Below, one piece after another: positions 196 through 35,994 of a stretch of 35,994 nucleotides of DNA. The stretch's first letter is position 1. The number at the start of each line of letters is the position of its first letter. The DNA is from Rickettsiales bacterium (GTDB lineage Bacteria; Pseudomonadota; Alphaproteobacteria; Rs-D84): contig JAISGC010000057.1 in the NCBI GenBank assembly GCA_031263295.1, positions 1 through 35,994 on the forward strand, given 5' to 3'. A program made the position numbers and the translations under genes. The notes beneath the pieces were generated by a model that saw only the letters and a list, made by a program, of their open reading frames with translations, did not search any database and was not told the DNA's origin.

Positions 196-735
196 ATGAA
201 AAAGTTCAATTATCAAAGTGCAAAGTTCAATGATGGCTTGCGGGAGCGCAGAGGCGCATTCGGCAAGCTATCATTGAACTTTGCAATTTGCACTTTGTTA
301 TTTTGCGGCGACGCAGTCGCCGCAAAGCTTTGCATGCGAAATCCGCCGAACGGCGGGAAGTTCACCAGAAACCCGACCGCGAATATCTGGGCCAACGGGC
401 CCGACTGCATGACCTGGTCGACCGGCGAAAACAGCGTTTCGGCCGAAACCGACCCGATGAAGCTCTGCCCGAATGTCAAAATGCACGGGGAATCGCGTTT
501 CATTTGGTTTTATAATGCAGCCGGGGAAAATCGGCCCGTCGCCGGAGAAAGCGCGAGCACCGAACCGGAGAAAGGCAGTTGCCTCTGCAAGATAAACTAT
601 CCTTTCCAAACGAAGTGGTTTCTGGTCGGACCGGACTATAATAGTTCCAATACCTGCAACCGGTGGTGCGGCAGCCTGTCGGTCCGTCCGAGCGACAGAA
701 ACTTTATAAAATATATCGGATTGGGGTTTGATTGA
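196..735 (+). CDS. secreted Cys-rich hypothetical protein (paralog of 32166-32603)
   Basis: GGGAG SD before ATG 196; signal-like N-terminus; IWANGxxC and CxCKxxYP...W...CxxxC motifs shared with 32166-32603. Confidence 0.8.
   Translation: MKKFNYQSAKFNDGLRERRGAFGKLSLNFAICTLLFCGDAVAAKLCMRNPPNGGKFTRNPTANIWANGPDCMTWSTGENSVSAETDPMKLCPNVKMHGESRFIWFYNAAGENRPVAGESASTEPEKGSCLCKINYPFQTKWFLVGPDYNSSNTCNRWCGSLSVRPSDRNFIKYIGLGFD
201..297. repeat. heptamer-armed hairpin (CAAAGTG/CAAATTG family), in frame inside the signal-peptide region
   Basis: CAAAGTGCAAAGTTCAATGATGGCTTG...CAAGCTATCATTGAACTTTGCAATTTGCACTTTG; homologous to 20305-20397. Confidence 0.85.
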
Positions 736-828
736 GCGGCCGGCGCGCCGCAAAGATAGCGGAGCGCAGGCGAACATCCAATAATCCCGAAGACCAACGG
801 GGCGAAGTTAGACAGAGCCAGCGACAAG

Positions 829-878
829 CACCACCCCGCCGCCCTTCGGGCGGCACCCCTCCAAAGGAGGGGAACACC
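829..878. repeat. half copy of the REP-like palindrome between convergent genes
   Basis: CACCACCCCGCCGCCCTTCGGGCGGCACCCCTCCAAAGGAGGGGAACACC matches the right half of 5-151. Confidence 0.85.
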
Positions 879-894
879 ACGCGTCACGCATCGC

Positions 895-2241
895 CTAGTT
901 TTTAAGGAAGTGTTCCAGCCAGTGGTTGTCGATTTTGTTCGACTGGACATCCGCGGCGTCGAGCAGGCGCAACTGCAATGGCGCAGTCGTTTTCACGCCT
1001 TCTATCATAAACTCGCCCAATGCGCGGCGCGCCCGGCGGATGGCCGACGCGCGGTCGTCCGCGTGCACAATGACCTTGGCAATCATAGAATCATAATAAG
1101 ACGGGATTTTGTATCCAGGATAGCAGGCCGAATCCACCCGGACGCCGTATCCGCCCGACGGGCAGTATTGCGTCAGCGTTCCCGGGTTCGGCATAAATGT
1201 GTCCGGATCCTCCGCGTTGATGCGGAACTCTATCGCGTGGCCCTTGGGTTTCAGGTCTTTTTGCGCGAACGACAGCTTTTCGCCCATCGCTATCCGTATC
1301 TGCTCGCGGACCAAATCGACGCCGTAGACCATTTCGGTCACGGGGTGCTCGACCTGCAATCTGGTGTTCATTTCAAGAAAATAGAACTTGCCCTTCTCGA
1401 ACATAAACTCCAATGTTCCGGCGTTCGTATAGCCGAGTTTTTTCATGGCGGCGCCGCAGACCTTTATCATTTCCGCGCGCTCGTCTTCCGTAATCGCGGC
1501 CGCGGGGCATTCCTCCATAACCTTTTGGTTTTTCCTTTGCAAGGAGCAGTCGCGCTCGCCCACAATCGCGACATTGCCCTTTTCGTCGCCAAGCACCTGG
1601 AACTCTATGTGCCGCGGATGCATCAGCAGCTTTTCCATATAAATAGTGTCGTCGCCGAAGCCGGACCGCGCCTCGGCCTTGACCAGCTGGAACGATTCCG
1701 CGAGGTCGGCCGCCGCAAAGACCGCGCGCATCCCCTTGCCGCCGCCGCCGGCCGCCGCCTTTAACATAACCGGATAGCCGATTTTCTCGGCCCATTTTTC
1801 AGCCGACGCCAAATCCGCGACCGCGCCGTCCGAACCCGGGACGACCGGCAGGCCGCATTCAATCGCCGTTTTCTTCGCCGCGACCTTGTCCCCCATGCGG
1901 GCGACCATATCGGAGGTCGGGCCAATCCATTTCAGGCCGTGCTGCTCGACCTTTTTAATAAAGTCCGCCCGCTCGGAAAGCAGGCCGTATCCGGGATGAA
2001 TCGCGTCGCAATCGGTCAAAAGCGCCGCCGACAATATCGCCGCCTCGTTCAAGTATGAGTCCCGGGCCGCCGCCGGGCCTATGCAGACGGACTCGTCGGC
2101 CAAGGCCGCGTGCCGTGCGTCCGCGTCGGCCGTCGAATAGACCGCGACCGATTGGATGCCCATATCGCGGCAGGCGCGGACTATGCGGAGCGCGATTTCC
2201 CCGCGGTTGGCGATCAATATCTTTTTGATTTTCTTTGGCAT
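895..2241 (-). CDS. accC: acetyl-CoA carboxylase biotin carboxylase subunit
   Basis: KILIANRGEIA, HPGYG, GGGGKGMR, RDCSLQR, EMNTRLQVEHPVTE, YYDSMIAK motifs. Confidence 0.97.
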   Translation of the reverse strand: MPKKIKKILIANRGEIALRIVRACRDMGIQSVAVYSTADADARHAALADESVCIGPAAARDSYLNEAAILSAALLTDCDAIHPGYGLLSERADFIKKVEQHGLKWIGPTSDMVARMGDKVAAKKTAIECGLPVVPGSDGAVADLASAEKWAEKIGYPVMLKAAAGGGGKGMRAVFAAADLAESFQLVKAEARSGFGDDTIYMEKLLMHPRHIEFQVLGDEKGNVAIVGERDCSLQRKNQKVMEECPAAAITEDERAEMIKVCGAAMKKLGYTNAGTLEFMFEKGKFYFLEMNTRLQVEHPVTEMVYGVDLVREQIRIAMGEKLSFAQKDLKPKGHAIEFRINAEDPDTFMPNPGTLTQYCPSGGYGVRVDSACYPGYKIPSYYDSMIAKVIVHADDRASAIRRARRALGEFMIEGVKTTAPLQLRLLDAADVQSNKIDNHWLEHFLKN

Positions 2242-2857: not shown

Positions 2858-2955
2858 AGTTGGGGTTTGAGTTCGAGTTTGTGTGTAACATGCGTTGTCG
2901 ATTAAAGACAAACGCCATCGCAAGTTTCACTCAAACTCGAACTCAAACTCCAACT
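2858..2955. repeat. hexamer-armed hairpin (GAGTTT/GAGTTC)
   Basis: AGTTGGGGTTTGAGTTCGAGTTTGTGTG...CACTCAAACTCGAACTCAAACTCCAACT; begins in the DUF721 stop codon. Confidence 0.9.
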
Positions 2956-3251
2956 TACCTTACGACCACCTTCCCAATCGCCCCATACCCGAAGTATTTG
3001 TTGATTTTTTCGGCGATTTCCGGGGCGGAATACGAGATTTCCAGCCGCCGGGCCGGGTTTTTCGCCCGTATCGTCGCGGTTCGGTCCTTGACGCCGCGGG
3101 TTATTCTGACCAGTTCGGTATCCGGACCGACCAGCTCCGGCCAGCGCGCCGCAAGGTCGGCGTCGGACGCCTTGGCGCCGAGGCGGGACAAGAGCTTGTT
3201 TATCGCAGAGCCTATGAAAGCCGGGCGCGTGTCCCTTTTAATTGCCACCAT
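2955..3251 (-). CDS. DUF721/DciA-like small protein
   Basis: L..RWPELVG, LEISY...EIAEKINKYFGYGAI pattern; GGAG SD before ATG 3251. Confidence 0.75.
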   Translation of the reverse strand: MVAIKRDTRPAFIGSAINKLLSRLGAKASDADLAARWPELVGPDTELVRITRGVKDRTATIRAKNPARRLEISYSAPEIAEKINKYFGYGAIGKVVVR

Positions 3252-3765
3252 TGTATGTCTCCGAAAACTCGCAGCCGCAGTATTTTTGGCGGTAGCCGCC
3301 CGGTTCCGGCGCATAGCCGAAGTCCGCATCGATATATTCTATGTCCGAATCCGGGCCGAGGGCCGCGCGGGCCGCCCTGCGCACCTGGGCCGCGTCTTTA
3401 TGCGGGGAGACGCCGAAGACGCTGGCAATGCGTCCGCATCCGTTCGCGCGCGCCCAGTCCGCGCCGTATCGAAGCCGCATCGCGAAGCATTTTTCGCACC
3501 GCGCGCCGCGCTCGGGGTCTTTCTCGTGTCCGCGGACCGCCCGCAGCCAGGCCGCGTGGTCGTAACGGCTTGTCGCCCACCGGACTCCGAGCTTGTCGCA
3601 AAGCTTTATCTGCTCGTCCAGGCGCCGGTCGTATTCGGCGCGCGGGAAAATGTTCGGATTGTAAAACAGCACGCAGAAATCCGCGCCGTCCTTTTTGAGG
3701 CGCTTTACCGCCGCCGCAGAGCAGGGCGCGCAGCAGGACATCAAAAGGAGCTTGGAACTTTTCAT
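3238..3765 (-). CDS. queH: epoxyqueuosine reductase QueH (DUF208)
   Basis: LLLxSCCAPCS, FYNPNI, PERGARCEKC, YRQKYCGCEFS. Confidence 0.9.
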   Translation of the reverse strand: MKSSKLLLMSCCAPCSAAAVKRLKKDGADFCVLFYNPNIFPRAEYDRRLDEQIKLCDKLGVRWATSRYDHAAWLRAVRGHEKDPERGARCEKCFAMRLRYGADWARANGCGRIASVFGVSPHKDAAQVRRAARAALGPDSDIEYIDADFGYAPEPGGYRQKYCGCEFSETYNGGN

Positions 3766-3768
3766 ATA

Positions 3769-3864
3769 TTTTAATGACTAATGACTAATAACTAATGTCT
3801 AATTACTAATAAAATGCCGCCGATTAGACACTAGTAATTAGTCATTAGTTATTAGTCATTAAAA
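3769..3864. repeat. heptamer-armed hairpin (AATGACT) between tRNA-Cys and queH
   Basis: TTTTAATGACTAATGACTAATAACTAATGTCTAATTACTA...TAGTAATTAGTCATTAGTTATTAGTCATTAAAA. Confidence 0.9.
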
Positions 3865-3956: not shown

Positions 3957-4586
3957 TCATACAACGGCCGCCGCGTTTTTGCAAGGGCATATCTTGGCGA
4001 CGGGACAATCGTCGCACTTTGGGCGCAGCGCCTTGCAGATATAGCGCCCGTGCATAACCATCAGGTGGTTCGCCAGATCGTGAAATCGCGGCGGGATGAT
4101 TTCGACCAGGCGGCGCTCGACCTTTTCGGGCGTGTTGTCCGCGGCGCCCGCCCAGCCGAAGCGGTGCGACAGGCGGAAAACATGCGTGTCTACGCCGATA
4201 TTCGGCGCGCCCCATAAAATGTTCGACACGACATTCGCGGTCTTGCGCCCTATGCCGGGCAATTTCACCAGTTCGTCGCGCTCATGGGGCAGGGCGCGGC
4301 CAAGCAGTTTTTCCGACAGCGCGATGATATTTTTCGCCTTGTTGTTAAAGAAAGAAATAGACTTGATAAAATCCTTTAATCCTTGCAAACCAAGGGTCAG
4401 AAACTTTTCGGGCGTATCGGCCGCGGCGAATAATGCGGGCGTGCAGGTGTTCACATGCTTGTCCGTCGCCTGGGCCGAAAGAATAACCGCAATCGCGAGC
4501 GTGAACTCGTTGGTGTAGTAAAGTTCGGTCCGCGCGTCAGAGCCGAACTTTTTCTTCATTGCGTTGAAATATTTTGTCGGATTCAT
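3957..4586 (-). CDS. nth: endonuclease III
   Basis: LSAQATD, HhH LPGIGRKTANVV, VDTHVFR, CxxxxPxCxxCPxxxxC 4Fe-4S motif; start at MNPTKY. Confidence 0.95.
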   Translation of the reverse strand: MNPTKYFNAMKKKFGSDARTELYYTNEFTLAIAVILSAQATDKHVNTCTPALFAAADTPEKFLTLGLQGLKDFIKSISFFNNKAKNIIALSEKLLGRALPHERDELVKLPGIGRKTANVVSNILWGAPNIGVDTHVFRLSHRFGWAGAADNTPEKVERRLVEIIPPRFHDLANHLMVMHGRYICKALRPKCDDCPVAKICPCKNAAAVV

Positions 4587-7887: not shown

Positions 7888-9528
7888 GTGAAAAATTACG
7901 ATGTCATTATTATCGGGGGCGGGCATGCGGGCGTAGAGGCGGCGGCCGCCGCCGCGAGGCGAGGGGCGCACGCGCTGCTTTTGACCAAGGCGGCGGCGGA
8001 CCTTGGGGCGATGAGTTGCAACCCTTCCATAGGCGGGCCGGGCAAATCCCAGATGGTCGGCGAGATGGCCGCACTCGGCGGAGTGATGCCGCGGGCCGCC
8101 GATGCCGCGGGCATTCAATTTCGGATGCTGAACGCAACGCACGGGCCCGCGACCCAGGCCCTTCGCGCGCAGATTGATCGCGATTTATATCGGGCCGCCG
8201 TCTCACGAATCACGAGCCACGAACCACGAATCACGATTGAATATGAATCTGTCGAAACACTCGATTTGGAAAACAAAATCGTCAATGGGAAATATCGGGC
8301 CAAGGCGCTGGTTTTGACAACGGGGACTTTTCTGAACGGCCTCGCGACCAGGGGCGCGGAACGCATCCCATCGGGGCGGCTGATGGACGATGGGAACTAT
8401 CAGGATGCGACGGCCGGAATATCGGAAATACTCAAAAAGGCCGGTTTTTCGATGCTGCGATTAAAGACCGGAACGCCCGCGCGATTGTTTGCCGATTCAA
8501 TCAATTTCGCCGTTTGCGAGGAGCAAAAGGGGGATGAGCCGCACGAATGGTTTAGTTTAGGGGTTAGGGGCCAGGGGTTAGGGGTTAGTTGTTTCATAAC
8601 TCACACAACGGAGGAGACGCACGATATTATAAGGGACAATATTGCGGCGGCGCCGATGTATAACGGGGGCATAGAGGGCATCGGGCCGCGATATTGCCCA
8701 AGCATCGAGGACAAGGTTATGAAGTTCCCCGAGCACCTGTCGCACCATATTTTCTTGGAGCCCGAGACGCGGGCGGGCGATGTGATTTATCCGAACGGCC
8801 TGTCGACTTCGTTCGGCGCCGATATTCAGGACCGGTTTTTGCGGACGATTCCGGGACTCGAAAATGTGCGCGTCGCCCGATACGGATACGCGATTGAATA
8901 TGACGCCATCGATGCGCGGGCTTTGCGGCCGTCGTTGGAGGCGCGGATGCTGCCCGGTCTTTTTTTCGCGGGCCAGATAAACGGGACATCGGGATACGAA
9001 GAGGCGGCCGCGCAGGGGCTGGTCGCCGGGGCAAATGCCGCTGCCTTCGCACTGGGCGGCGCGCCGCTCGAACTCGACCGGACCAATTCTATGATCGGCG
9101 TTATGATTGACGACATTACGACCCTCGGCGTCGACGAGCCTTATAGAATGTTCACCAGCCGCGCCGAATATAGATTGCAATTGCGGAGCGACAATGCCAT
9201 TTTTCGTATTGGACCGCGGGCGGTAGAACTTGGATTGCTGGCGCGGGATGTTTATGAACAAATGAGCAATGAGCAATTAGCAACCCGCAATGAGGTGGAC
9301 AAACTTTACGCCGGTTATATTGCGCGGCAGAATGCGCAGATTGAAAAAATGCGGCGGGACAAATTGGTCAAAATCCCGGTCGGATTGGACTTTTCCGCCC
9401 TGTCGGGATTGACCAACGAACTTGTGCAAAAGCTCGCGGCGGCGCGGCCCGACAATCTCGCCGCCGCGATGCGCATTCCCGGAATGACGCCCGCCGCCGC
9501 GATGGTAATCTTGTCCGCGATTAAATAG
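7888..9528 (+). CDS. mnmG: tRNA uridine 5-carboxymethylaminomethyl modification enzyme MnmG (GidA), shortened
   Basis: GGGHAGVEAA, MSCNPSIGG, RLKTGTPAR, GPRYCPSIEDK, AGQINGTSGYEEAAAQG, EPYRMFTSRAEYRL. Confidence 0.96.
   Translation: MKNYDVIIIGGGHAGVEAAAAAARRGAHALLLTKAAADLGAMSCNPSIGGPGKSQMVGEMAALGGVMPRAADAAGIQFRMLNATHGPATQALRAQIDRDLYRAAVSRITSHEPRITIEYESVETLDLENKIVNGKYRAKALVLTTGTFLNGLATRGAERIPSGRLMDDGNYQDATAGISEILKKAGFSMLRLKTGTPARLFADSINFAVCEEQKGDEPHEWFSLGVRGQGLGVSCFITHTTEETHDIIRDNIAAAPMYNGGIEGIGPRYCPSIEDKVMKFPEHLSHHIFLEPETRAGDVIYPNGLSTSFGADIQDRFLRTIPGLENVRVARYGYAIEYDAIDARALRPSLEARMLPGLFFAGQINGTSGYEEAAAQGLVAGANAAAFALGGAPLELDRTNSMIGVMIDDITTLGVDEPYRMFTSRAEYRLQLRSDNAIFRIGPRAVELGLLARDVYEQMSNEQLATRNEVDKLYAGYIARQNAQIEKMRRDKLVKIPVGLDFSALSGLTNELVQKLAAARPDNLAAAMRIPGMTPAAAMVILSAIK
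8203..8237 (+). repeat. intragenic heptamer array (TCACGAA x5, imperfect)
   Basis: tcacgaa tcacgag ccacgaa ccacgaa tcacgat, read as SRITSHEPRIT in mnmG. Confidence 0.85.
8557..8588 (+). repeat. intragenic heptamer array (TTAGGGG x4.5, imperfect)
   Basis: ttagggg ttagggg ccagggg ttagggg ttag, read as LGVRGQGLGVS in mnmG. Confidence 0.85.
9261..9295 (+). repeat. intragenic heptamer array (AATGAGC x5, degenerate)
   Basis: aatgagc aatgagc aattagc aacccgc aatgagg, read as MSNEQLATRNE in mnmG. Confidence 0.75.
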
Positions 9529-12611: not shown

Positions 12612-12668
12612 TTGAGTTCGAGTTTGAGTTTGAGTGGAGCTCGACTCAAACTCCAACTCGAACTCAAA
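12611..12668. repeat. hexamer-armed hairpin (GAGTTT) filling the whole topA-dnaG spacer
   Basis: TTTGAGTTCGAGTTTGAGTTTGAGT-GGAGCTCG-ACTCAAACTCCAACTCGAACTCAAA. Confidence 0.9.
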
Positions 12669-26384: not shown

Positions 26385-26478
26385 GAGAATGGAACTTGTT
26401 AAAAGGTTTTTGTTAAAAATTAAAGCACTGCGGTTATCGCAGGCTCCATTCTCTTATTCTCTTATTCTCTTATTCTCT
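26360..26478. repeat. octamer-armed hairpin (AGAGAATA) spanning the lpxC end and the lipoprotein start
   Basis: (AGAGAATA)3 AGAGAATGGAAC...GCTCCATTCTCT(TATTCTCT)3; loop similar to 35877-35994. Confidence 0.92.
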
Positions 26479-26826
26479 CTTACCGCGTGCAGCAGCCCCA
26501 ACTCGGGCAATATCGACAATGCGACGATTCTAAACTGGGAAAACGATATGGCCACCAACGAGCAGTTCGTCAAAGATCACAAATACTGCCTCGGCGTCGA
26601 CAAGCCGTCCCATATGCCCCGCTCCCGCGTAGCCAAGCTTCTGATGCCGAATGCCGGCGGCCAGATGCCCGACTGGGAGGGCCTTTGGGTCACATTCCAA
26701 TCCAACGAAAATCGCGACATCCCCCAGCGATTCCTGATGTCCGCCCCGCCCGGCACAACCAGCAAGTCCACGGGCGCATACAGAAAATGCATGTTCAAGA
26801 AAGGCTATCTCCTCCGCGCCGAATGA
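26389..26826 (+). CDS. putative lipoprotein
   Basis: lipobox LTAC after hydrophobic FSYSLILLFS; C...YRKCMFKKGY C-terminal motif. Confidence 0.75.
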   Translation: MELVKRFLLKIKALRLSQAPFSYSLILLFSLTACSSPNSGNIDNATILNWENDMATNEQFVKDHKYCLGVDKPSHMPRSRVAKLLMPNAGGQMPDWEGLWVTFQSNENRDIPQRFLMSAPPGTTSKSTGAYRKCMFKKGYLLRAE

Positions 26827-26914
26827 GGCGCGAAGCCGGCGGGGAGGCCCCCGCGGGCCTACTCTGGCGCAGTGCCGGAAATAAGGCAATCCCTTTTATA
26901 ATAATGTGATAAAA

Positions 26915-27766: not shown

Positions 27767-27833
27767 GTGGCGCTGCCCATTAAATGCAAACGCGATTATA
27801 AGCTCAACTCAAACTCACACTCGAACTCAAACT
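27742..27833. repeat. hexamer-armed hairpin (GAGTGC/GAGTTT), encodes C-terminal VRVRVGV-stop
   Basis: AGTGCGAGTGCGAGTGGGAGTTTGAGT...ACTCAAACTCACACTCGAACTCAAACT. Confidence 0.8.
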
Positions 27834-27853
27834 TTTTATGATATAATCACACT

Positions 27854-28477
27854 ATGAAAAGGTCTTTGCTCTATTTGTTTCTGACGCTCGCCGCGCTGGT
27901 TTATGCGGCGGTCAAATTCGCCGCGTCCGATTCGACCGCGTCCAGGGCGCGGATAATTTCCGACGGGCCGGTCGGCGAAAATCTCCGCGCTTTCGTTTCC
28001 GCGAATGTCGGCAACCCGGATTTGCCGCGCATCGTCGCCGATAACTTTTCCGGCGTCAGATTCGTCTCGGTCAGGAACGATATGAACGGGACCGCCGTCA
28101 TAACCATCCGGCACAAGAAGACCATCGCGGTCTGGACCGACGGCGAGAAATACTATCCGCTGCTTGAAAACGGCGCCCATTTGGACGCGCCTTTCGCGGC
28201 CCGGCCGCAGAGCGTGGTTTTCAAGGGCGCGGTGCCCGCGGATGTTTTGGGCATAATAAAATCGGTCGCGGCCGCGCCGCGGTTTTTCGCGAAGGCGGAC
28301 TTTTTGGAATGGGTGGAGGGTCGGCGCTGGAATGCGATTTTATTCGACAGGGCCAGGGTGATGCTGCCCGATCGCAACGCCGCCGCCGCCATCGCGAAGA
28401 TTGAATCGTCCGGCATTCTGGGCAAAAAGTTTTCCGTCCTGGATCTTCGGGACCCGGAGCGGATGCTGGTCAAATAG
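27854..28477 (+). CDS. ftsQ: cell division protein FtsQ, compact
   Basis: N-terminal TM, POTRA-like segment, WVEGRRWN, LDLRDPER; precedes an ftsA-like gene. Confidence 0.8.
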   Translation: MKRSLLYLFLTLAALVYAAVKFAASDSTASRARIISDGPVGENLRAFVSANVGNPDLPRIVADNFSGVRFVSVRNDMNGTAVITIRHKKTIAVWTDGEKYYPLLENGAHLDAPFAARPQSVVFKGAVPADVLGIIKSVAAAPRFFAKADFLEWVEGRRWNAILFDRARVMLPDRNAAAAIAKIESSGILGKKFSVLDLRDPERMLVK

Positions 28478-28480
28478 GAG

Positions 28481-28608
28481 AATAAAGAATAAAGAATAAA
28501 GAATAAAGAATAAATAGCGGCGCGTTTGCAGGCAGAGCGCATATTGTTGCGTCATAACTTGTCGCCCGTGCATATTTATTCTTTATTCTTTATTCTTTAT
28601 TCTTTATT
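28481..28608. repeat. heptamer-armed hairpin (AATAAAG), perfect 36-bp arms
   Basis: (AATAAAG)4 AATAAATA at 28481-28516 and TATTTATT(CTTTATT)4 at 28573-28608. Confidence 0.95.
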
Positions 28609-28615
28609 AGAAGCA

Positions 28616-30313
28616 TTGTTCGACAATAAACAGACATTTCTTGCGCTCGACATCGGGACCGGCGTGGTCCGCGCGTTCGGCGCCGCCGTCAAGGACGGGC
28701 GGGCGCGGCATTTTTCCTTCGCCGCGTCCGGGGGCGCGATCGCCGAAAATATCATGAACGCCGCCGACGCGGTCGAAAGGGAGCTCGGCGTGAAGTTCCG
28801 GGATGCGGCGATAACCGGCAACCTCGGGGCGGTCGAATCGGTTGTCGCCAAAAACGGCGTCGCCTTTCCGCGCGTTCGCGAAATAACCGAGACGGACGCG
28901 TTCAATGCAATCTGCAATTCGGCCGAGGTCCGCGGCAATCCGGGCATGGTCCTGCATCTTATACCGCTGCAATTTTCGGGCGCGGCGGATGCGGCCGATG
29001 GCGAGATGGCGCCGGGGCGGCCCGCCTTCGGGCGAGTCCTTTCGGTCCGGTTCAATATGCTTTTCGTCGACGGCGCCCGCGTGTCAGAAATCAAGCGCGC
29101 ATTGATGTCGGCCTCCATCCGGCCAGTCGGATTCTATGACCCGATTTATTTATTGGGGCTGCGCTATCACCAGAAAAAGCGGACGGAGATTTTCATAGAC
29201 TTCGGCGCATCCTTTATAAAGGCCGGGGTTATGACCGACCGCGGCCTGACCAAGCGGTTCGATGTCGCGGCGCCTGTCTTTTCGACCGACGAGAAAATCC
29301 GGCTGGCCGTTTTGGAGGACGAGCCCATGGGCTCGGACCGCTATGTCGCCGCGGCCGAAAATATCACGCGCCAGGATGTCTGGGACGAATGGGCCGCGGC
29401 GATGGGCGATGCGGTCGATATTATTTTGGAGAGAGCCGCCGCGCCGGGCGCCGCGATTTTCATATCCGGCGCGGGCGGAAACGCGGAGCATATAAAGTCT
29501 CTGATCCTTGAAAACAAAGGATTGGAGAATATTACGATATTGGATGGGTTCGCGGCGGCCGGATCTTTGGCGCTCCGCGGCGCGGGTTCCGCCGAACCGC
29601 GGTCTGCGACTGCCGCAGGCGGCGCCGCTCCGCGGCGGGCACCGCGCCGCGGGCGTCGGCCGCAGGCCGCGGCCGTTCTGCCGAGCGTTCTGAACTGGGA
29701 CATAAACAACGGATGGGTTTATAAGATGTTTCAGAACGCCGGAATAAAGCGGCTGCACATCGATGTGCAGGACGGCTTCTATACCGCGGCCGTTTCGGGC
29801 GGGGTGCCGGAATTGAAAAAAATCCGCGCGTTGTGGAGGGGCGGGATGCAGGTTCATCTGATGGTCGACGACCCGGCTTCGTGGGCGCAGGTCGTTATGA
29901 AAATCGGCGCGGATACTATTATCGTCCAGGCGGGGACGCGGAACGCCGAGGCCGCGATGACGAAAATAAAGCGGGCGGGCAGGCGGGCCGGATTTGCGAT
30001 TTCGCCGGACTTCGACATCAAAAAATTGCCGAGGCTGATGCTCGCGATGGCGGACGAGATAATCGTGCTCGCGGTCGCGCCCGGCCCGAGCGGACAGGCG
30101 TTCGGGGAGGCGGCGCTGGCGCGCATACGCGCGCTGAAAAACACGCGGACGCGATATAGGTTCGATTACGAGATAATCGCCGACGGCGGGATAAATCCCG
30201 AGACCGCGAAACTCTGCCGGGAAGCGGGCGCGGATGCGGTCGTCAGCGGAAGCTTTCTGCGCAACGCGCCGGATTTCCCGTCCGCGGTCGCGGAACTAAT
30301 TCATAATTCATAA
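28616..30313 (+). CDS. fusion of divergent FtsA with ribulose-phosphate 3-epimerase
   Basis: N-terminal ALDIGT, VLHLIP, FIDFGA, ISGAG actin-fold motifs; C-terminal PSVL, LHIDVQDG, VHLMV, ADGGIN, GADAVVSGS; TTG start at 28616 inferred. Confidence 0.8.
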   Translation: MFDNKQTFLALDIGTGVVRAFGAAVKDGRARHFSFAASGGAIAENIMNAADAVERELGVKFRDAAITGNLGAVESVVAKNGVAFPRVREITETDAFNAICNSAEVRGNPGMVLHLIPLQFSGAADAADGEMAPGRPAFGRVLSVRFNMLFVDGARVSEIKRALMSASIRPVGFYDPIYLLGLRYHQKKRTEIFIDFGASFIKAGVMTDRGLTKRFDVAAPVFSTDEKIRLAVLEDEPMGSDRYVAAAENITRQDVWDEWAAAMGDAVDIILERAAAPGAAIFISGAGGNAEHIKSLILENKGLENITILDGFAAAGSLALRGAGSAEPRSATAAGGAAPRRAPRRGRRPQAAAVLPSVLNWDINNGWVYKMFQNAGIKRLHIDVQDGFYTAAVSGGVPELKKIRALWRGGMQVHLMVDDPASWAQVVMKIGADTIIVQAGTRNAEAAMTKIKRAGRRAGFAISPDFDIKKLPRLMLAMADEIIVLAVAPGPSGQAFGEAALARIRALKNTRTRYRFDYEIIADGGINPETAKLCREAGADAVVSGSFLRNAPDFPSAVAELIHNS

Positions 30314-30486
30314 TTCACAATTCATAATTTTCCCCACCCAAGTTTTTCTAAATCTCGCGGGCTTTGCCCGCTCGATAAGAAAAACTTTCCCGCCCCGCTG
30401 GACCCTGCGGGTCCGCGGGGCAGGAGGGAGCGCGACGGCAAGCAACAAATTATGAATTATGCATTATGAATTATGAATTATGAATT
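30298..30486. repeat. heptamer-armed hairpin (AATTCAT/AATTATG) enclosing a REP-like element
   Basis: AATTCATAATTCATAATTCACAATTCATAATT...AATTATGAATTATGCATTATGAATTATGAATTATGAATT; contains the ftsA-rpe stop. Confidence 0.9.
30332..30425. repeat. REP-like palindrome family 3 (copy 1, nested)
   Basis: CCCCACCCAAGTTTTTCTA...AAGAAAAACT-TTCCCGCCCC...GGGGCAGGA; similar to 33515-33601. Confidence 0.8.
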
Positions 30487-30498
30487 GATATTTCCCCC

Positions 30499-30527
30499 TT
30501 TACATAAAAATCTGAATAATTTATAAT
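30499..30527 (+). promoter_or_regulatory. sigma70-like promoter
   Basis: TTTACA-17 nt-TATAAT. Confidence 0.7.
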
Positions 30528-30746
30528 TTCGCTGCCGCGCCAGATTCGCGCGGCGGGGTGTCATTACCCTCTTTTGAGCGTCCGAAGGGACGAAAATTAT
30601 CTCCAACTCCGGTTGGAGGGCCGATGAATATATTGAATAAGCGGCACAATTCTCAAAGATTGTAATGAACCTCCAACCACCCTTCGCGGATGCGCCGCTT
30701 CGGGTGGCGGACCGCCGTTTGCGGCGGCCATACAAAGGAGTTTGAG

Positions 30747-31607
30747 ATGAGAATATTTTTTGCGCTGTTTTCGTTTGTCGTCGCGTCCGCCGCGCGGGCC
30801 GCGGATATTGCCGCGTCGGTATTCGCCAATTGCGCCAGGGTCTGCATCAATCGCGAGATTTCCGTTCCGGACTGCGCGTTTCCCGATGTCGCCGCATTGA
30901 ACGCGCAGCTGGCGGAGGCGAAATCCGGTATTAGCGATCGCGATGCAAAGCTGGCCGGTTTGCAAAAAGAACTCGACGGCGCGAGGGCGGATAATTTGAC
31001 CGCGGCGCAATGCGATGCGAAGGTTGCGGCCGCGGTCGCCGCAGTTCCGGCGCAGGCCGCGCCGCCCGCACCGGCGTGTCCCGCGGCCCCGGCTTGCCCG
31101 GCGACGCCGGTGTGTCCGCCGACACCGGCGTGTCCGGCTTCGCCCGTTGTCGCGGCGGCGGCTCCCGCTCCGGCGCCCGCGCCAGCCCCGGCGGCGGCGG
31201 CCGTCGCCGCCGCGCCGGACCCGAAATGCGCCGCTGCGGTAAAGCAGTATTATTTCGGAGTTGTATTCACAAAGAGATTCAAGGCGGGGGATTCGTTCAA
31301 ATGCAATGCCGGAACTTTCGGGGATCCGTCGGTCACGGGAGCGTCCAAGTATTGCTATGGCGAAGATACTTCGATACTGGTGGCGGAAGGAAATACGCAT
31401 ACCATGAAAACCGACGGAAATATAGGCTTTGGGTCTATTTTTGCGGCTTCGGGCGACAGCGGGAAATGCGATAGAAAAAGTTTTGGAAACAACAAGCTGA
31501 GCAGCAGCGGTTTTCCAATATATTGCTATGACCGCAATCTGAATATCGCCGCGAAGGAAGGGGCGGCCTTCGTTCCGAAGTCGAAGAAGCTGAGCCATTG
31601 CCCGTGA
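30747..31607 (+). CDS. secreted Cys/Pro/Ala-rich protein with coiled coil and FGDP lectin-like module
   Basis: AGGAG SD; signal MRIFFALFSFVVASAARA; PxCPxx repeats; CNAGTFGDPSVTGASKYCY. Confidence 0.8.
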   Translation: MRIFFALFSFVVASAARAADIAASVFANCARVCINREISVPDCAFPDVAALNAQLAEAKSGISDRDAKLAGLQKELDGARADNLTAAQCDAKVAAAVAAVPAQAAPPAPACPAAPACPATPVCPPTPACPASPVVAAAAPAPAPAPAPAAAAVAAAPDPKCAAAVKQYYFGVVFTKRFKAGDSFKCNAGTFGDPSVTGASKYCYGEDTSILVAEGNTHTMKTDGNIGFGSIFAASGDSGKCDRKSFGNNKLSSSGFPIYCYDRNLNIAAKEGAAFVPKSKKLSHCP

Positions 31608-31653
31608 TGCTTGCCGGGGGGACCGCGGCCCCGCGCGCCCGATATTTTCTTCT

Positions 31654-31681
31654 TTGCAAAAAAATGCGGAACGCTTATAAT
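31654..31681 (+). promoter_or_regulatory. sigma70-like promoter upstream of the C4-like RNA
   Basis: TTGCAA-16 nt-TATAAT. Confidence 0.65.
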
Positions 31682-31864
31682 GGCCGGGAACCAAGTTGGG
31701 AAACTTGGGTCGGGGCTATCGAAAGCCTTTACTAGTGCGGCGCGTTCTCGCGTCGTAATCCGCGCATAAAAAACGCCCGGTTGAAATACCCGGTGCCTGC
31801 GGCGATGGCCGCGTTTTTTATGCCGTCGGCCGGACCCTCCGGGTCTGTCGCCGGTCCCCGTTTT

Positions 31865-31939
31865 ATGGTCGGGGGGCCGTTCGCGAGCAATCCGAACGGA
31901 ATCATTCATTAGTATGATTTTCGATCCCACCCGACCTAT
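31865..31939 (+). ncRNA. C4-like antisense RNA (P1/P7 C4-type three-way junction)
   Basis: ATGGTCGGG-GGG [CCGTTCG..CGAACGG][AATCAT-TCATTAGT-ATGATT] TTCGAT CCC-A-CCCGACC; complementary targets ATCGAAA (31718) and ACTAGTG (31731) upstream. Confidence 0.65.
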
Positions 31940-31971
31940 CAGGTTTTTCGATATAGGCCGAGCCTTCCGGC

Positions 31972-32123
31972 GGGTGTTCCCCTCCTTTGGAGGGGTGGCA
32001 TTTTGCGAAGTCACGAAGTGTCGTAGCAAAATGACGGGGTGGTGATGAAGACAGGCACAGCGCGTTATCGCCACCAGTGCGTGGCCGCCTTCGGCGGCAC
32101 CCCTCCAAAGGAGGGGAACACCC
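31972..32123. repeat. REP-like composite palindrome (copy 2 of 5-151)
   Basis: GGGTGTTCCCCTCCTTTGGAGGGGTGGCATTTTGCGAAG.CACGAAGTGTCGTAGCAAAATGACGGGGTGGTG...CCCCTCCAAAGGAGGGGAACACCC. Confidence 0.92.
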
Positions 32124-32165
32124 GCTTGAAGGCATCGCCAAGAAAACAAAAACAGGGAGAAAAAT

Positions 32166-32603
32166 ATGAGAAAATTATTTGCCGGAATCGCTCTGGTCCT
32201 TTCAGCACAAGGAGCGGAGAGCGCGAAGATGTGCAGGCTGGATAACTCGGGGATGACATACGCATACAATGCGTCCGCAAAAATATGGGCGAACGGGATA
32301 GGCTGCGGCGATACCGAAAAAAGCGGCGGCGCGGACCAGCTTTGCGCGACGCGAAAGATGTCGGGCGTCGGATGGTGCGCCGAGAAAGGATACACGACAT
32401 ATGGGCCGGCGAATGAAAACGAGGTTGGAAAATACTGCCATTGCAGAATGACTTGGCCGATTGAGGGCAGATGGATTTTGGGCTGGTATACCGGAGGAAA
32501 TAATGACCCGTTCACAGATGCGGCGGCCTGCGCCGCAAAATGCGCGATGGCCTGCGGTGCAGACAGCAGAAGCAATTTATTCTTGTTTATGGTGGCCGTG
32601 TAA
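32166..32603 (+). CDS. secreted Cys-rich hypothetical protein (paralog of 196-735)
   Basis: GGGAG SD; signal peptide; IWANGIGC, YCHCRMTWP...W...CAAKCAMAC. Confidence 0.8.
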   Translation: MRKLFAGIALVLSAQGAESAKMCRLDNSGMTYAYNASAKIWANGIGCGDTEKSGGADQLCATRKMSGVGWCAEKGYTTYGPANENEVGKYCHCRMTWPIEGRWILGWYTGGNNDPFTDAAACAAKCAMACGADSRSNLFLFMVAV

Positions 32604-32993
32604 TGATTCGATAGTTATTTCACGGGCGGTTCCGTCTGCGGTTATGTTTATGAAAATCGTGTCTTTGGGCAGGAAGGGCAGGGCGAGTTCCGGCCATTCG
32701 ATTAAAACTATGTCGTGGCCGATTGCGTCGAAGAGGCCTATCTCTTCGAGTTCGGCCGCAGACTTTACTCGGTATAGGTCGAAGTGGGATATTCCGGGAT
32801 AGGTTTGCACGATTGTGAATGTGGGGCTCGGAATGTTCTGGTCCTTGGAAACCAAGGACTGGATGATTGCGCGCGAAAACTCGGTCTTGCCCGCGCCGAG
32901 GTCTCCGTTGAATGCGACGACCGAGTTGGGGCGCAACTTTTTTGCGAAGTCGGCGGCGAATTTCTTAAATGATTGTAAGTCTTTTAAAAGCAT
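32577..32993 (-). CDS. tsaE: tRNA t6A biosynthesis ATPase TsaE
   Basis: GDLGAGKT, PSPTFTIVQTY, HFDLYR, LIEWPE. Confidence 0.95.
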   Translation of the reverse strand: MLLKDLQSFKKFAADFAKKLRPNSVVAFNGDLGAGKTEFSRAIIQSLVSKDQNIPSPTFTIVQTYPGISHFDLYRVKSAAELEEIGLFDAIGHDIVLIEWPELALPFLPKDTIFINITADGTAREITIESLHGHHKQE

Positions 32994-32994
32994 G

Positions 32995-33071
32995 TTTTCC
33001 ACTACCCCGTATGTTCGCTACGCGCGCGGCCAGTGCGTGTTCGCCAGCGAAGGGGAATTGCGCTCTGGAAT
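32995..33071. repeat. REP-like palindrome family 2 (copy 2)
   Basis: TTTTCCACTACCCCGT...TTCGCCAGCGAAGGGGAATTGCGCTCTGGAAT; ends identical to 4587-4660. Confidence 0.85.
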
Positions 33072-33074
33072 AAA

Positions 33075-33470
33075 TCACCAATCATACAACTGGTAATCCG
33101 ATGTTTTTTCGATGTCGCCTTTGGTTATTATATTCGCGTGGTTCGGGCAGTTGTAGACATTCGCCGTTATGATATAAGACCGGTCCTCGCCGAAGAACTT
33201 CCATTCGCGCGGGCTGGTTCGCATCGAGACTATCCAGTATGCGTTGCCTTTTCGCGCCTGGTCCACGACGCGGTTTTCAAGGTATGCTATCGCGTCGTCC
33301 TTGTCGTAGACGAGCGCGTCCACTTCGAGCTTGTATAAAAACTGGCAGCCGATGGGCTCGTCTTTTAATTGGCGCAGGTATTTTGTTTCGGGCTTCGGTT
33401 CGATGAAGCCCGAACAGGCGGCCAGCGCGGCTAGCGCCGCCGGGCATAAAATGGTCAGTAGTTTTTTCAT
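33075..33470 (-). CDS. lipoprotein (DUF4156-like)
   Basis: MKKLL...LAAC lipobox; C.FL...LENR...KGN...ANVYNC pattern. Confidence 0.75.
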   Translation of the reverse strand: MKKLLTILCPAALAALAACSGFIEPKPETKYLRQLKDEPIGCQFLYKLEVDALVYDKDDAIAYLENRVVDQARKGNAYWIVSMRTSPREWKFFGEDRSYIITANVYNCPNHANIITKGDIEKTSDYQLYDW

Positions 33471-33601: not shown

Positions 33602-34418
33602 AACGCGCAATCGCCGATTCGACTTCTTCAATGGAGTAATCCGGTGTGGACAGGCCCGCCGCAATGGCGCAATGCTGTTTCCCGTCGAACCATTCCGGCC
33701 GCAGTTCGGCCGCGTTTTCGACCTGAAAAATATCTTGGCAGAACGGCCCCGCGGCGGCCGCCAGCGCCTTGGTGTTCGATGAGTTCTTTCCGCCGATCAC
33801 AATCATTATGTCCGCCCATTTCGCCAATTCGGCCGCAGCCTTTTGGTTGTTTTGCGTCGCCGGGCATATCGTGCAGACGCTTTGGAAATCCTTGATTTTC
33901 TCGGACAAAAACTTTTCCGCCTCTTGAAACTCGTTTATCGGCTTGGTCGTTTGCGAAATCAGCGCGACGCGTTCCGGCAGGGCGATGCCCCGCAATTGGT
34001 CGACCGACGAGAACGCGAAAACATTCGCGGCCCGCCCTATGATTCCCAGCACCTCCGGGTGGTTCGTTTCGCCGAACAAAAACACCGCGCGTCCGGATTC
34101 GGAAAACTCGCGCGCCAAATCCTGGACGCGCTTCACATTCGGGCAGGTCGCGTCGATTATTTTGATGCCGCGGGCCTCCATCGATTTCTGTTCGGCCTCG
34201 CCTATGCCGTGCGCCCGTATCAGGGCAGTCCCTCCGTTTGGAATCGCGTCGATTTCCAGCGGCCCGACATCGAAGTCCCGCAGCAGGCGCGCCGTTTCGT
34301 GCGGGTTGTGGACTATCTCGCCCGCCGCGATATATGCGCCCGGATTATCCTCGGCCATTTTAATCGCCCGGCGGACCCCGCCGCAAAATCCGATAACTTT
34401 TGTCTTTCTAATTTCCAT
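33573..34418 (-). CDS. ispH: 4-hydroxy-3-methylbut-2-enyl diphosphate reductase
   Basis: GFCGGVRRAI, IVHN, RAHG, DATCP, HPEV, SQTT, TICPAT, SSNT, AGLSTP. Confidence 0.96.
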   Translation of the reverse strand: MEIRKTKVIGFCGGVRRAIKMAEDNPGAYIAAGEIVHNPHETARLLRDFDVGPLEIDAIPNGGTALIRAHGIGEAEQKSMEARGIKIIDATCPNVKRVQDLAREFSESGRAVFLFGETNHPEVLGIIGRAANVFAFSSVDQLRGIALPERVALISQTTKPINEFQEAEKFLSEKIKDFQSVCTICPATQNNQKAAAELAKWADIMIVIGGKNSSNTKALAAAAGPFCQDIFQVENAAELRPEWFDGKQHCAIAAGLSTPDYSIEEVESAIARFLPPFMGAG

Positions 34419-35481
34419 TCGCAAGAACCTTGTCTATTTCGGCGCACAGGCGGGCGAATATCCGGTCGTTCGGAATCGGAACCGGAGCGCGCCCTCCGAC
34501 GACGAGCATTCCGGTTTTGTCTTCCGCGGACGCGCCGTAGACGCCGACATCCACGCGGCCCGCCTCCTGTCTGTTCACGACGCAGCCCATGACCGCGACG
34601 GATGCGGCGCGCGTTTCGTCTCTATACTTTTCTTCAAGCATATTCGCGATTTTTATGACATCTATGCATTTTCGCGAACAGGTCGGGCACGAGACGATGT
34701 TCAGGCCGCGGCTCGACAATCCGTATGCCTTTAATATTTTTATTCCGGCGCGCGCCTCGTCGACCGGGTCCCCCGACAGGGAGACGCGCAGCGTGTCGCC
34801 GATTCCGCTCCAAAGCAGATGCCCGAGCGCCATCGCGTTTTTTATGCTGCCGTCCAGAATGCCACCGGCCTCCGTCACGCCGAGGTGCAGGGGATAATCG
34901 CATTTCGCGGCCAATTTCTCATAGGCCTCTATCGTCATTTTTGCGTCGGACGACTTGACGCTTATTTTTATATCCGAAAACCCGGCGTCTTCCAGCGCCC
35001 GCGATTGGAGCAATGCGGATTCGACCATGGCCTCCCCGCACGGCTCGCCGTATTTTTCCAGCAGGTCTTTTTCCAAAGATCCGGCGTTGACCCCTATCCG
35101 TATCGAGCATTTGTTCGCCTTCGCCGCCGCGACGACCTCGCGGACATTCTCCGCGCTTCCGATATTCGACGGGTTTATGCGCAGGCATGCGGCCCCGGCG
35201 TCCGCGGCCAGAAGCCCCATCCGCCAATCGTAATGAATATCGGCGACAATCGGAACCTTCGATTTGGGAACGATGCGGCGCAGGACATCCGCGGCCGATT
35301 CGTTCGGGACGGATATGCGCATTATGGAGGCGCCCGCGTCCGCGCATTCGTTTATCTGGCGCAGCGTTCCGTCGAAATCGTCGGGCGCGGCGTTCGTCAT
35401 CGATTGTATTGTTATGGGGGCGCCGCCGCCGACCGGCACATCGCCGACAAAAATCTGTCTTGTTTTTCTTCGCTCAATCAT
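34408..35481 (-). CDS. ispG: 4-hydroxy-3-methylbut-2-en-1-yl diphosphate synthase
   Basis: IQSMTN, ADIHY, RINPSNIG, RIGVNAGSL, PLHLGVTEAG, GIGDTLRVSL, SCPTCSR, MGCVVN. Confidence 0.97.
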   Translation of the reverse strand: MIERRKTRQIFVGDVPVGGGAPITIQSMTNAAPDDFDGTLRQINECADAGASIMRISVPNESAADVLRRIVPKSKVPIVADIHYDWRMGLLAADAGAACLRINPSNIGSAENVREVVAAAKANKCSIRIGVNAGSLEKDLLEKYGEPCGEAMVESALLQSRALEDAGFSDIKISVKSSDAKMTIEAYEKLAAKCDYPLHLGVTEAGGILDGSIKNAMALGHLLWSGIGDTLRVSLSGDPVDEARAGIKILKAYGLSSRGLNIVSCPTCSRKCIDVIKIANMLEEKYRDETRAASVAVMGCVVNRQEAGRVDVGVYGASAEDKTGMLVVGGRAPVPIPNDRIFARLCAEIDKVLANGN

Positions 35482-35583
35482 ACGCCCGGCCTTTTGCAAC
35501 GATTGCGATTATAACATTTTTTCCGCCGCCGCAAAAAATAAAGCAGTTGCCTGACAGGCGCATACTTTATTATAATGTTCGCT

Positions 35584-35901
35584 ATGGAAAGGTTCGAGAG
35601 TCTTGTTGGATTTTACGGCGCGGTCAAAACCATCGCGTCCGCCGTCTGCGTCGAGAAGGGCGGCATCGACATAGACAACTATGCCGGGCGCTTTTTTATC
35701 GCCGACTTGCTTGAACTTATCGTCGCATACGGCGAGAAGGCTGGCGCGAAAAACCTGGACGCCCTGCGCCGCGAATTGGCCGCCCGCGCCGCCGACATCA
35801 CTCCGACCAACAAGCCGATTTACGAGATGTCGCTTGAAGAGTTTGAGAAGTTTATAGGCGGCGGCTCCGCCGCCGAAGAGAATAAGAGAATAAGAGAATA
35901 A
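35584..35901 (+). CDS. hypothetical protein; C-terminus ENKRIRE encoded by a repeat
   Basis: codon style matches neighbours; TATAAT 7 nt before ATG 35584. Confidence 0.7.
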   Translation: MERFESLVGFYGAVKTIASAVCVEKGGIDIDNYAGRFFIADLLELIVAYGEKAGAKNLDALRRELAARAADITPTNKPIYEMSLEEFEKFIGGGSAAEENKRIRE

Positions 35902-35994
35902 GAGAATGGAACTTGTCAAAAGGTTTTTGCATAAAATAAAAGCGGCACGCATATTGCGCGCTCCATTCTCTTATTCTCTTATTCTCTTATTCTC
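35877..35994. repeat. octamer-armed hairpin (AGAGAATA), close homolog of 26360-26478, cut by the window end
   Basis: (AGAGAATA)3 AGAGAATGGAACTTGTCAAAAGGTTTTTG...GCTCCATTCTCTTATTCTCTTATTCTCTTATTCTC. Confidence 0.92.

Follow-up and report, generated by a model that had tools for sequence, protein, structure and literature searches.

Hairpins with Tandem-Repeat Arms at Gene Boundaries of a Termite-Gut Bacterium Resemble Gene-Carrying 23S rRNA Intervening Sequences

Introduction

Intervening sequences (IVSs) in 23S rRNA, together with their S23p gene, came to light around 1990, and their origin, their spread and the function of the protein are still unexplained (PMC4990558, in excerpt). According to the same excerpt, the Coxiella IVS has a 28-bp terminal stem, contains tandem GACAGAT heptamers ahead of the S23p open reading frame (ORF), and is cut by RNase III within the stem. 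Here we describe a population of hairpins whose two arms are short tandem arrays, one being the reverse complement of the other. They came to attention in a contig of 35,994 nt from a Rickettsiales bacterium (GenBank assembly GCA_031263295.1, contig JAISGC010000057.1, positions 1 to 35,994); this whole stretch is called the window below. One copy in the same genome encloses a gene of family PF05635, the family of the S23p protein, and genes of this family lie between arms of the same kind at loci across the phylum.

Correia elements have a TA duplication, and repetitive extragenic palindromic (REP) sequences are GTAG-tagged palindromes of 20–40 nt. Where Correia elements are co-transcribed, RNase III cuts their paired inverted repeats in the mRNAs (PMC10969869, in excerpt). 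REP doublets forming hairpins (REPINs) are inverted extragenic doublets that spread within a genome (PMC3116915, in excerpt). Tandem heptamers occur in intergenic DNA as the cyanobacterial short tandemly repeated repetitive (STRR)/TAACTGA repeats (PMC4679880). Xanthomonas genomes hold 70–75 convergent pairs of GGGAATC heptamer arrays each, many of which lie 0–50 bp from a stop codon or overlap it (PMC4692102, in excerpt). Finally, Rickettsia palindromic elements (RPEs), palindromic repeats of a reduced alphaproteobacterial genome, can stand in frame inside genes (PMC10969869, in excerpt).

Results and Discussion

Hairpins in the window

The window is the complete contig C73 of the genome bin G000, which comprises 987,354 nt in 114 contigs (54.6% G+C, 87.6% completeness). 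The sequencing run that contains it is listed as a termite gut metagenome, which points to a small termite-gut bacterium. The nearest named relatives of its MnmG protein (63–75% identity) are uncultured alphaproteobacterial bins (Rickettsiales bacterium, Alphaproteobacteria bacterium and Candidatus Enterousia). The housekeeping operons of the window include accC, ileS, mnmG, ychF, dnaG, topA, rodA, PBP2, virB4, lpxK, lpxC, ftsQ, ispH and ispG.

Elements in the window were detected with Tandem Repeats Finder and an inverted-repeat scan. A sequence-only reading of this DNA had proposed about 13 elements of the form (unit)n-loop-(reverse complement)n. At 12 of these 13 sites (201/214, 2255, 2858, 3769, 12611, 16101, 20300, 26360, 27742, 28481, 30297 and 35877) we confirmed an array of period 6–8 with its reverse-complement array 0–116 nt downstream. 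The remaining candidate, at 18418, was dropped, as it is a palindrome of 14–16 nt with one unit per side. The confirmed elements are as follows (window coordinates; the hairpins are listed without strand).

205–296: hairpin of the CAAAGTG/AAAGTGC arm class (−51.7 kcal/mol, z −11.4); its inner module GCCTGCCGAATGCGC is common to the element at 20300
2254–2338: hairpin of the AAAGAAT/AATGAAT arm class, between the accB stop and the accC start (minus strand)
2858–2955: hairpin with GAGTTT-type arms of 46 nt, 85% complementary (−54.6 kcal/mol)
3769–3864: hairpin of the AATGACT class; the stop codon of ORF 2860–3774 lies in its first unit
12611–12670: hairpin with GAGTTT arms, taking up exactly the interval between the topA stop (TAG) and the dnaG ATG
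16101–16232: composite (nested) AAGAGAAT hairpin between PBP2 and rodA, with the PBP2 stop inside (−71.9 kcal/mol)
20300–20402: hairpin of the AAAGTGC class between two convergent genes, both stops in the arms
26360–26478: AAGAGAAT hairpin; LpxC ends 8 codons into the arm
27742–27833: hairpin with AGTGCG/GAGTTT-type arms (z −4.9); ORF 26906–27766 stops inside the arm, and the start of ftsQ is 20 nt further on
28479–28608: hairpin that begins within a few nt of where ftsQ stops (ORF end 28477), with AATAAAG arms of 36 nt that are 100% complementary
30297–30486: AATTATG-class hairpin (12 copies) with AATTCAT as arm unit; its loop encloses a nested GC-rich palindrome, and ORF 28526–30313 stops within the arm
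35876–35994: AAGAGAAT hairpin cut by the contig end; its loop matches that of 26360, and identical copies end three other contigs

The arms consist of 4–5 tandem units of 6–8 nt. In the inverted-repeat scan they measure 25–46 nt and are 82–100% complementary, which gives these elements the long stem typical of an IVS. For a 22-nt arm pattern the window gives 12 matches, where 0 are expected. RNA folding of ten elements returned a long hairpin in every case (−31.8 to −71.9 kcal/mol, z-scores −4.9 to −11.9), and none of 200 shuffles folded as well. In Rfam, two tRNAs are the only features of the window that reach the gathering score, and no family matches the hairpin elements.

Eleven of the elements had been placed at or near stop codons; we find nine that contain or abut one (2255, 3769, 12611, 16101, 20300, 26360, 27742, 28481 and 30297), the element at 20300 doing so with both convergent stops. 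The element at 2858 sits between divergent gene starts, and the 3' end of tRNA-Cys lies 5 nt beyond the hairpin at 3769–3864. Two further observations of the sequence-only reading agree with ours. Loop sequence is common to 26360 and 35877 and to 201 and 20305, and no transposase domain was found in the 30 scanned of 34 ORFs called in the window.

Repeats of this kind raise the question of assembly or amplification artefacts. Array-rich sequence is mildly enriched at contig ends (22 of 228 lie within 60 nt of an array), and four contigs end in an identical AAGAGAAT element. Against this, elements occur in the interior of long contigs, flanked on either side by intact genes, some arrays are in frame within conserved genes, and the same architecture recurs in the related genomes G090, G093 and G091 and around PF05635 genes across the phylum. 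An artefactual origin is therefore extremely improbable.

Unit classes and dispersal in the genome

In the whole of G000 we counted 615 arrays of period 5–9, of which 354 pair into 178 hairpins that fall into 25 unit classes. The hairpins make up 1.76% of the assembly. The median element measures 94 nt. Arms consist of 4–5 units, and their median length is 27 to 32 nt. Among the classes, ACTAGG (37 copies) is the largest, followed by AATGAGC (24), AATGACT (16), AACGACT (16), AAGAGAAT (16), AATTATG (12) and AACCCCT (9). This diversity sets G000 apart from the Xanthomonas and cyanobacterial repeats, which have one dominant unit per genome: with 25 classes, the largest of which accounts for 37 of 178 pairs, the G000 hairpins are not a single-unit heptamer system. 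They also differ by their shared inner modules and by a link to a gene-bearing cassette (see below); the excerpts of the Xanthomonas and STRR papers mention no link to PF05635.

An independent detector that does not use Tandem Repeats Finder found 138 periodic-arm hairpins in the 987 kb of G000, or 14.0 per 100 kb. The congener G004 contains a single one in 352 kb (0.3 per 100 kb). Densities in the relatives, which refer to sampled stretches of each genome, are 5.0 per 100 kb in G090, 2.5 in G093 and 2.4 in G091, and the same detector reported no periodic hairpin in samples of G094 (100 kb), G092 (43 kb), G021 (60 kb), G005 (60 kb) and G001 (54 kb).

Members of a class are related in detail. 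All 16 AATGACT copies contain the same unit series, TAATGAC-TAATGAC-TAATAAC-TAATGTC-TAATTAC, and the same ends, TTT...AAA. In the ACTAGG class (37 copies, 34 of them aligned) a 44-nt inner palindrome is held in common. An inner half-site recurs in 71 of 155 loops against 12 expected and across at least 10 arm classes, a count that is partly circular because the motif was derived from the ACTAGG class. A second inner module ties the elements at 201 and 20300 to copies of the AATGAGC class. Cargo is variable within one class: some copies have none, others contain a short GC hairpin, and others again a nested palindrome or a gene. What stays constant in these elements is the arms, and the inside is swappable. 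Because class members share the order of variant units as well as inner modules at separate loci, we conclude that copies were dispersed as units and did not arise by local slippage only, as the sequence-only reading had argued. Its description of the repeat units as unrelated needs qualification, since arm classes share inner modules and one site can have different units in different genomes or paralogues; this pattern suggests unit turnover alongside separate families.

As a side observation, the arms of the 34 aligned ACTAGG copies differ by about 2% between copies, and the inner palindrome is far more variable. Most of its changes are apparently transitions, and often one half does not pair with the other.

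Turnover in place

Turnover is most visible inside genes. Three single arrays lie in frame in the mnmG gene of the window.

8203–8236, plus strand: TCACGAA x4.9 in a variable loop of mnmG; four other genomes have other units in the same loop
8557–8588, plus strand: TTAGGGG x4.6 in mnmG; 96.7% identical over 30 nt to an AACCCCT-class arm
9261–9294, plus strand: AATGAGC x4.9 in mnmG; resembles AATGAGC-class arms

Three variable MnmG loops carry such in-frame arrays in five genomes (L004, L006, L008, L012 and G000). The units differ from genome to genome, and the length is unchanged relative to outgroups. Two of the three G000 arrays match arms of hairpin classes. Units thus change at fixed sites as well as spread to new ones. 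Since arrays of period 7 inside genes cannot grow by single slips without a frameshift, patch-wise copying from other arrays seems more likely than single slips.

A second example is a family of small secreted or lipoprotein-like paralogues with a conserved leader and a conserved start of the mature protein (AAKLC/AAKMC). Here, hairpins belonging to three arm classes supply the coding sequence of the signal peptide: a charged stretch at the N terminus comes from the first, purine-rich arm, and the hydrophobic core of the signal peptide from the complementary arm. Hairpin arms can thus be recruited as coding sequence. Members of the family were seen on contigs C25, C105, C24, C46, C48, C109, C110, C57, C80 and C14 of G000, and a Pfam search with three of them gave no match.

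These sites are the best evidence for a different account, in which arrays arise in place by slippage, snap-back or template-switch repair, followed by gene conversion, and nothing moves. It would explain why the units at one and the same site vary from genome to genome (at three mnmG loops, across five genomes and with unchanged length, and also at the topA/dnaG and virB4 junctions discussed below), why in paralogues the same position is occupied by hairpins of three arm classes, and why 143 unpaired arrays lie inside ORFs. A reverse transcriptase conserved in the clade could also be enlisted. This stand-alone protein of 339 residues (G000 C57:1985–3004; L148:1222–2241) is encoded just upstream of trmD-rplS, matches group II intron reverse transcriptases best (109 bits, below the cut-off of 300), and is conserved at 47–53% identity in G004, G090, G093 and G094. 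It is equally present in hairpin-poor genomes, namely G004 and G094, and MutS is found in hairpin-rich and hairpin-poor genomes alike. More importantly, unrelated loci share a long and specific order of variant units together with non-repeat inner sequence, and seven of nine junctions assessed in G004 have no array at all. A purely local origin is for these reasons improbable. The reverse transcriptase was ruled out as a correlate of hairpin load (it occurs in four of five relatives tested, including hairpin-poor G004 and G094), and loss of mismatch repair was ruled out as a cause (MutS occurs in five of five genomes tested, rich and poor).

Placement and empty sites

We placed 177 elements relative to the called genes of G000; 20 lie inside ORFs and 23 at contig edges. 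Occupancy shows no strong preference for orientation: 88 of 446 same-direction junctions contain an element, as do 25 of 157 convergent and 21 of 149 divergent ones. In 54 of the 177 cases the element contains a called stop codon, and in 99 one lies within 10 nt. At the 88 same-direction junctions the element follows the stop at a median distance of 1.5 nt (interquartile range −3 to 7), and the next in-frame start comes a median of 13 nt after the element (5–30); 37 of these elements fill the whole junction. Placement at gene junctions, as proposed from the window, extends genome-wide. Targeting is a different matter, because it is inseparable from survival only at junctions, and neither a strong orientation bias nor a target duplication was found. 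The 20 elements inside called ORFs recall RPEs, from which G000 differs in that most of its elements stand at junctions and have microsatellite arms; the two systems were compared by description. Two whole hairpins (ACTAGG and AATGAGC) lie in frame in one lgt-like ORF (C20:15370–16284), a membrane-enzyme gene, where they add stretches such as LGLGSGLGLG...PSPSPDPSPN.

Orthologous junctions of relatives were searched for empty sites, and such sites exist. Seven of nine assessable junctions of G004 lack an element: accB/accC, ORF 2860–3774/tRNA-Cys, PBP2/rodA, the lpxC stop, ORF 26906–27766/ftsQ, ftsQ/next gene, where no array hairpin is seen, and the stop of ORF 28526–30313. The accB/accC junction of G004 is an overlapping ATGA, the spacing between gene and tRNA is about 6 nt, and some junctions are empty in G003 too: PBP2 and rodA overlap without an insert in both G003 and G004, lpxC ends in an ATGA overlap without an insert in both, and topA/dnaG is empty in G003. 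The remaining two junctions of G004 contain hairpins of other units, a small one with AGTTATA units at topA/dnaG and one with GGGACAA units at the convergent virB4 junction (the 20300 site). Where the junctions of relatives are empty, stop and start overlap or abut (ATGA, TGAAATG), and the element of G000 stands exactly there. Coupled essential genes (topA-dnaG, PBP2-rodA, accB-accC, lpxC) can be separated by 60–130 nt of hairpin. The relatives used for synteny are about 70% identical in protein, and at this distance the comparison shows absence of an element rather than a dated insertion. Because the genes overlap in two relatives, gain in the G000 lineage is the simpler reading. A metagenome scan with FtsQ for near-identical strains returned a best match of 42% identity.

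One rearrangement touches an element of the window: the block 26389–33470 is inverted relative to contig C2 of G004 (about 143500–148400), and one of its breakpoints is the AAGAGAAT element after lpxC.

A cassette rule for PF05635 genes

A search for a longer copy that encloses a four-helix-bundle ORF, as the sequence-only reading had suggested, found one, and the architecture proved general. The sole PF05635 gene found in G000 (C23:6818–7180, 120 residues) lies between AAGAGAAT x4.6 and ATTCTCTT x3.9. Its product matches PF05635 (E 9.6e-29), TIGR02436 (107.5 bits) and the five-chain PDB entry 2rld (E 2.3e-33). The ATG overlaps the last arm unit, and the same junction between arm and inside is found in several gene-less AAGAGAAT copies. 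An S23p-type ORF in the loop, as in IVSs, is thus present in one copy, and the other 177 hairpins are gene-less. Short IVS types without a gene exist.

In the order to which G000 belongs, every one of the 28 PF05635 loci collected is flanked by inverted arms, which are at least 17 nt long and lie no more than 150 nt from the gene. Strict periodicity of the arms was found at 20 of the 28 loci and in none of 104 windows shifted by 600 or 900 nt. A sample of the phylum (301 genomes, 60 with a PF05635 gene, 30 loci fetched) gave inverted arms at 19 of 30 loci and strictly periodic arms at 14, against 1 and 0 of 115 controls. The arm unit differs at nearly every locus. We propose that these genes reside in a PF05635 hairpin cassette, defined by inverted tandem arms of units of about 7 nt, with the G-rich arm first, that flank the cargo no further than about 150 nt from either end.

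The polarity is common to gene-bearing cassettes and gene-less hairpins. G exceeds C in the first arm in 21 of the 24 unit classes that G000 has (another class is tied), in 24 of 27 cassettes of the order (one tied) and in all 19 cassettes of the phylum sample; p-values for these counts are overstated, as neither classes nor related genomes are independent. Moreover, gene-less hairpins carry the arm unit of a resident cassette in G000, G090 and G091. Across genomes, hairpin load follows the PF05635 gene loosely. G090, G093 and G091 have six, five and two genes with 2.4–5 hairpins per 100 kb, and in G004, G092, G094 and G021, with 0–0.3 hairpins per 100 kb, no PF05635 gene was found.

The sequence-only reading had taken it as known that arrays often flank genes of four-helix-bundle, intervening-sequence-protein-like proteins; it is true of the Coxiella heptamers, and otherwise we traced no source for it. 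In mostly open-access literature we found no paper that states that PF05635 genes are generally flanked by inverted heptamer arrays, nor one that describes a multi-class population of heptamer-armed hairpins, and earlier descriptions may exist. What appears new is that the PF05635 gene stands in one fixed cassette across the phylum, with inverted arrays of about 7-nt units, the G-rich arm first and a locus-specific unit, and that one small genome contains a burst of gene-less cassette copies outside rRNA. The general cassette rule is the most useful new point. It bears on two published settings. PF05635 genes between cas genes have been read as CRISPR-associated (PMC3936711, in excerpt), and PF05635 genes occur at scattered rRNA insertion sites in bacteria of the candidate phyla radiation (bioRxiv 10.1101/2024.02.27.582315, in excerpt). 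Both would fit a cassette that lands between genes, and the former may be landed cassettes rather than CRISPR-associated genes.

The C23 copy has all the sequence features of the 23S rRNA IVSs with an S23p/PF05635 ORF (Coxiella, Leptospira, Brucella), tandem heptamers beside the start codon among them. Unlike these, the G000 elements lie between protein genes, beside a tRNA or in frame in genes, are mostly without an ORF and comprise 25 arm-unit classes.

[quoted passage not shown] Small, A/T-rich, multi-copy elements with terminal inverted arms (178 copies, median 94 nt) look the part, an insertion sequence could be missing from a genome that is 87.6% complete and in 114 contigs, and modular loops let cargo vary. 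MITEs and the Correia elements or Neisseria miniature insertion sequences (NEMIS) are likewise short palindromic inserts, present in many copies, that stand at gene boundaries and are co-transcribed. The G000 arms, in contrast to the unique inverted repeats of Correia elements/NEMIS, are tandem microsatellites, no target duplication was found, and we know of no related transposon. No longer copy with a known transposase was found (Y1_Tnp was searched, other families were not), and no repeat of at least 85% identity in the assembly exceeds 496 nt. Just one longer copy has a non-host ORF, whose product is the four-helix-bundle protein and not a known transposase, and a PF05635 gene lies between such arms at 47 of 58 loci across the phylum, which is too regular for chance cargo. 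We regard the MITE model as unlikely.

REPINs and their REP-associated tyrosine transposases (RAYTs) were compared as well. G000 elements resemble REPINs as hairpin-forming inverted doublets outside genes that have spread within a genome, and differ in that their arms are tandem arrays of 27–46 nt and no Y1/RAYT gene was detected. In particular, a RAYT gene flanked by the repeats was not seen, PF01797 being absent from the search of G000 (87.6% complete). A diversity-generating retroelement was rejected as a candidate, since the C23 protein scores 17–18 bits against Avd models (cut-offs 40 and 80) and the only reverse transcriptase, on another contig beside trmD, scores as group-II-like; template and variable repeats were not searched.

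A model for spread and tolerance

The explanation that we favour, and consider somewhat probable, is that the hairpins are selfish palindromic cassettes built like the gene-carrying IVSs of 23S rRNA, accompanied by gene-less miniatures, and tolerated because they fold out of the message. Each would consist of a G- or purine-rich arm of 4–5 tandem units of 6–8 nt, then cargo, then the reverse-complement arm. The full form would carry the gene of the four-helix-bundle S23p IVS protein (PF05635/TIGR02436), which is related to Avd, and the roughly 180 short forms would be miniatures with swappable inner modules. They may have spread as DNA copies into A/T-rich gene boundaries and thereby split genes that formerly overlapped and were translationally coupled. 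Insertion could be tolerated because the first arm usually provides a stop codon within a few codons. A read-through transcript is predicted to fold into a stem of 27–46 bp that brings the stop and the next start together, so that coupled translation may survive. Folding out of the message would fit the geometry, with stop and start codons at the foot of the stem. Such a stem is a natural substrate of RNase III, the gene of which is present in G000 (C92:24675–25013), and would probably be cut. In-place turnover of the tandem arrays by concerted evolution could then have produced many unit classes with one architecture. At the level of DNA, the earlier proposal of a mobile element that folds out of the message is largely borne out.

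Several results weigh against selfish IVS-like cassettes. First, the link to the gene is imperfect: G000 has the highest hairpin load with one PF05635 gene found (at 87.6% completeness), and G005 and G001 have three and four such genes and showed no periodic hairpin in samples of 60 kb and 54 kb. Second, the connection to rRNA is missing at the sites themselves. Insertion into helix 9, 25 or 45 of 23S rRNA was not seen, as the elements stand at junctions of protein genes or tRNAs or in ORFs; no 23S gene is assembled in G000, and that of G090 (2893 nt against a model of 2925 positions) has no insert. Third, no target-site duplication was found, as no direct repeat of 2–7 nt exceeds the level of shuffled partners in three classes (16, 19 and 37 copies), and no known DNA-moving enzyme is linked to the elements; Y1/HUH transposases and PF01797 (RAYT) were not found in G000, and other transposase families were not searched. 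Fourth, tests of pairing gave no clear sign of selection. G-U pairs favour the sense strand weakly (184 versus 132 in total, 40 versus 26 elements, p = 0.11). In five of six classes the own arms of an element are not clearly more complementary than arms of other copies (AATGAGC: 13 of 2000 permutations) by a measure that is blunt, as it allows register shifts; hence there is no compensatory evidence for selection on pairing. Finally, all placement statistics of G000 rest on crude gene calls (866 ORFs, greedy choice by length, GC3 ≥ 0.58).

The position of the hairpins would also suit a role for the host, which might keep them as RNA signals, that is, processing sites, mRNA stabilisers or translation couplers. 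Such a role is compatible with selfish IVS-like cassettes. The fit between stop and start in essential operons is tight, arms encode signal-peptide cores in a paralogous family, and whole host genes lie inside inverted single arrays (rplS) or between two hairpins (rpmE). Close relatives, however, run the same operons without elements, the sense strand has no significant structural bias, and density ranges from 0 to 14 per 100 kb among relatives, so that we see little chance that host signalling explains the population. In detail, rplS stands between two single inverted AAGAGAAT arrays 567 nt apart (C57:3738–3768 and 4335–4367), and rpmE between two AATGAGC hairpins (C42:13549–13984).

On mobility we offer one speculation, which is itself improbable. 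The four-helix-bundle protein could be the mobility factor of the elements and act on the arms as a pentameric ring that reads one unit of about 7 nt per subunit, with each protein matched to its own unit, and, as its relative Avd does, work with a reverse transcriptase, here the stand-alone one of the clade, to copy hairpin RNAs released by RNase III into A/T-rich boundaries. A pentamer reading one unit per subunit would explain why arms have 4–5 units. In that event, IVS-type cassettes and their miniatures would form a new class of retro-mobile elements, and S23p would gain a function after 30 years. Whatever the mechanism, about 180 natural insertions with known empty sites make mobility and RNA processing testable and provide a handle on how IVSs spread.

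Other features of the window

The window contains a second, unrelated family of palindromic repeats of about 170 nt with GC-rich, non-periodic arms (GGTGTTCCCCTCCTTTGGAGGGGTG...), at 2–162 and 31962–32133 and also at 838–878. A blastn search against the genome found 233 matching pieces of this family on many contigs of G000.

The stretch 31001–31200 has 82.5% G+C and contains 18-nt repeats (31069–31199) inside ORF 30597–31694 (minus strand), which has no Pfam match. An A/T-rich gap at 23200–23700 (lowest 24.5% G+C) holds an 83-nt unit x1.9 (23325–23488) just upstream of tRNA-Met (23543–23619). Lastly, ispG (34408–35499) is matched in only two of 21 neighbourhood genomes (G000 and G001), though 14 of these genomes are at least 90% complete.

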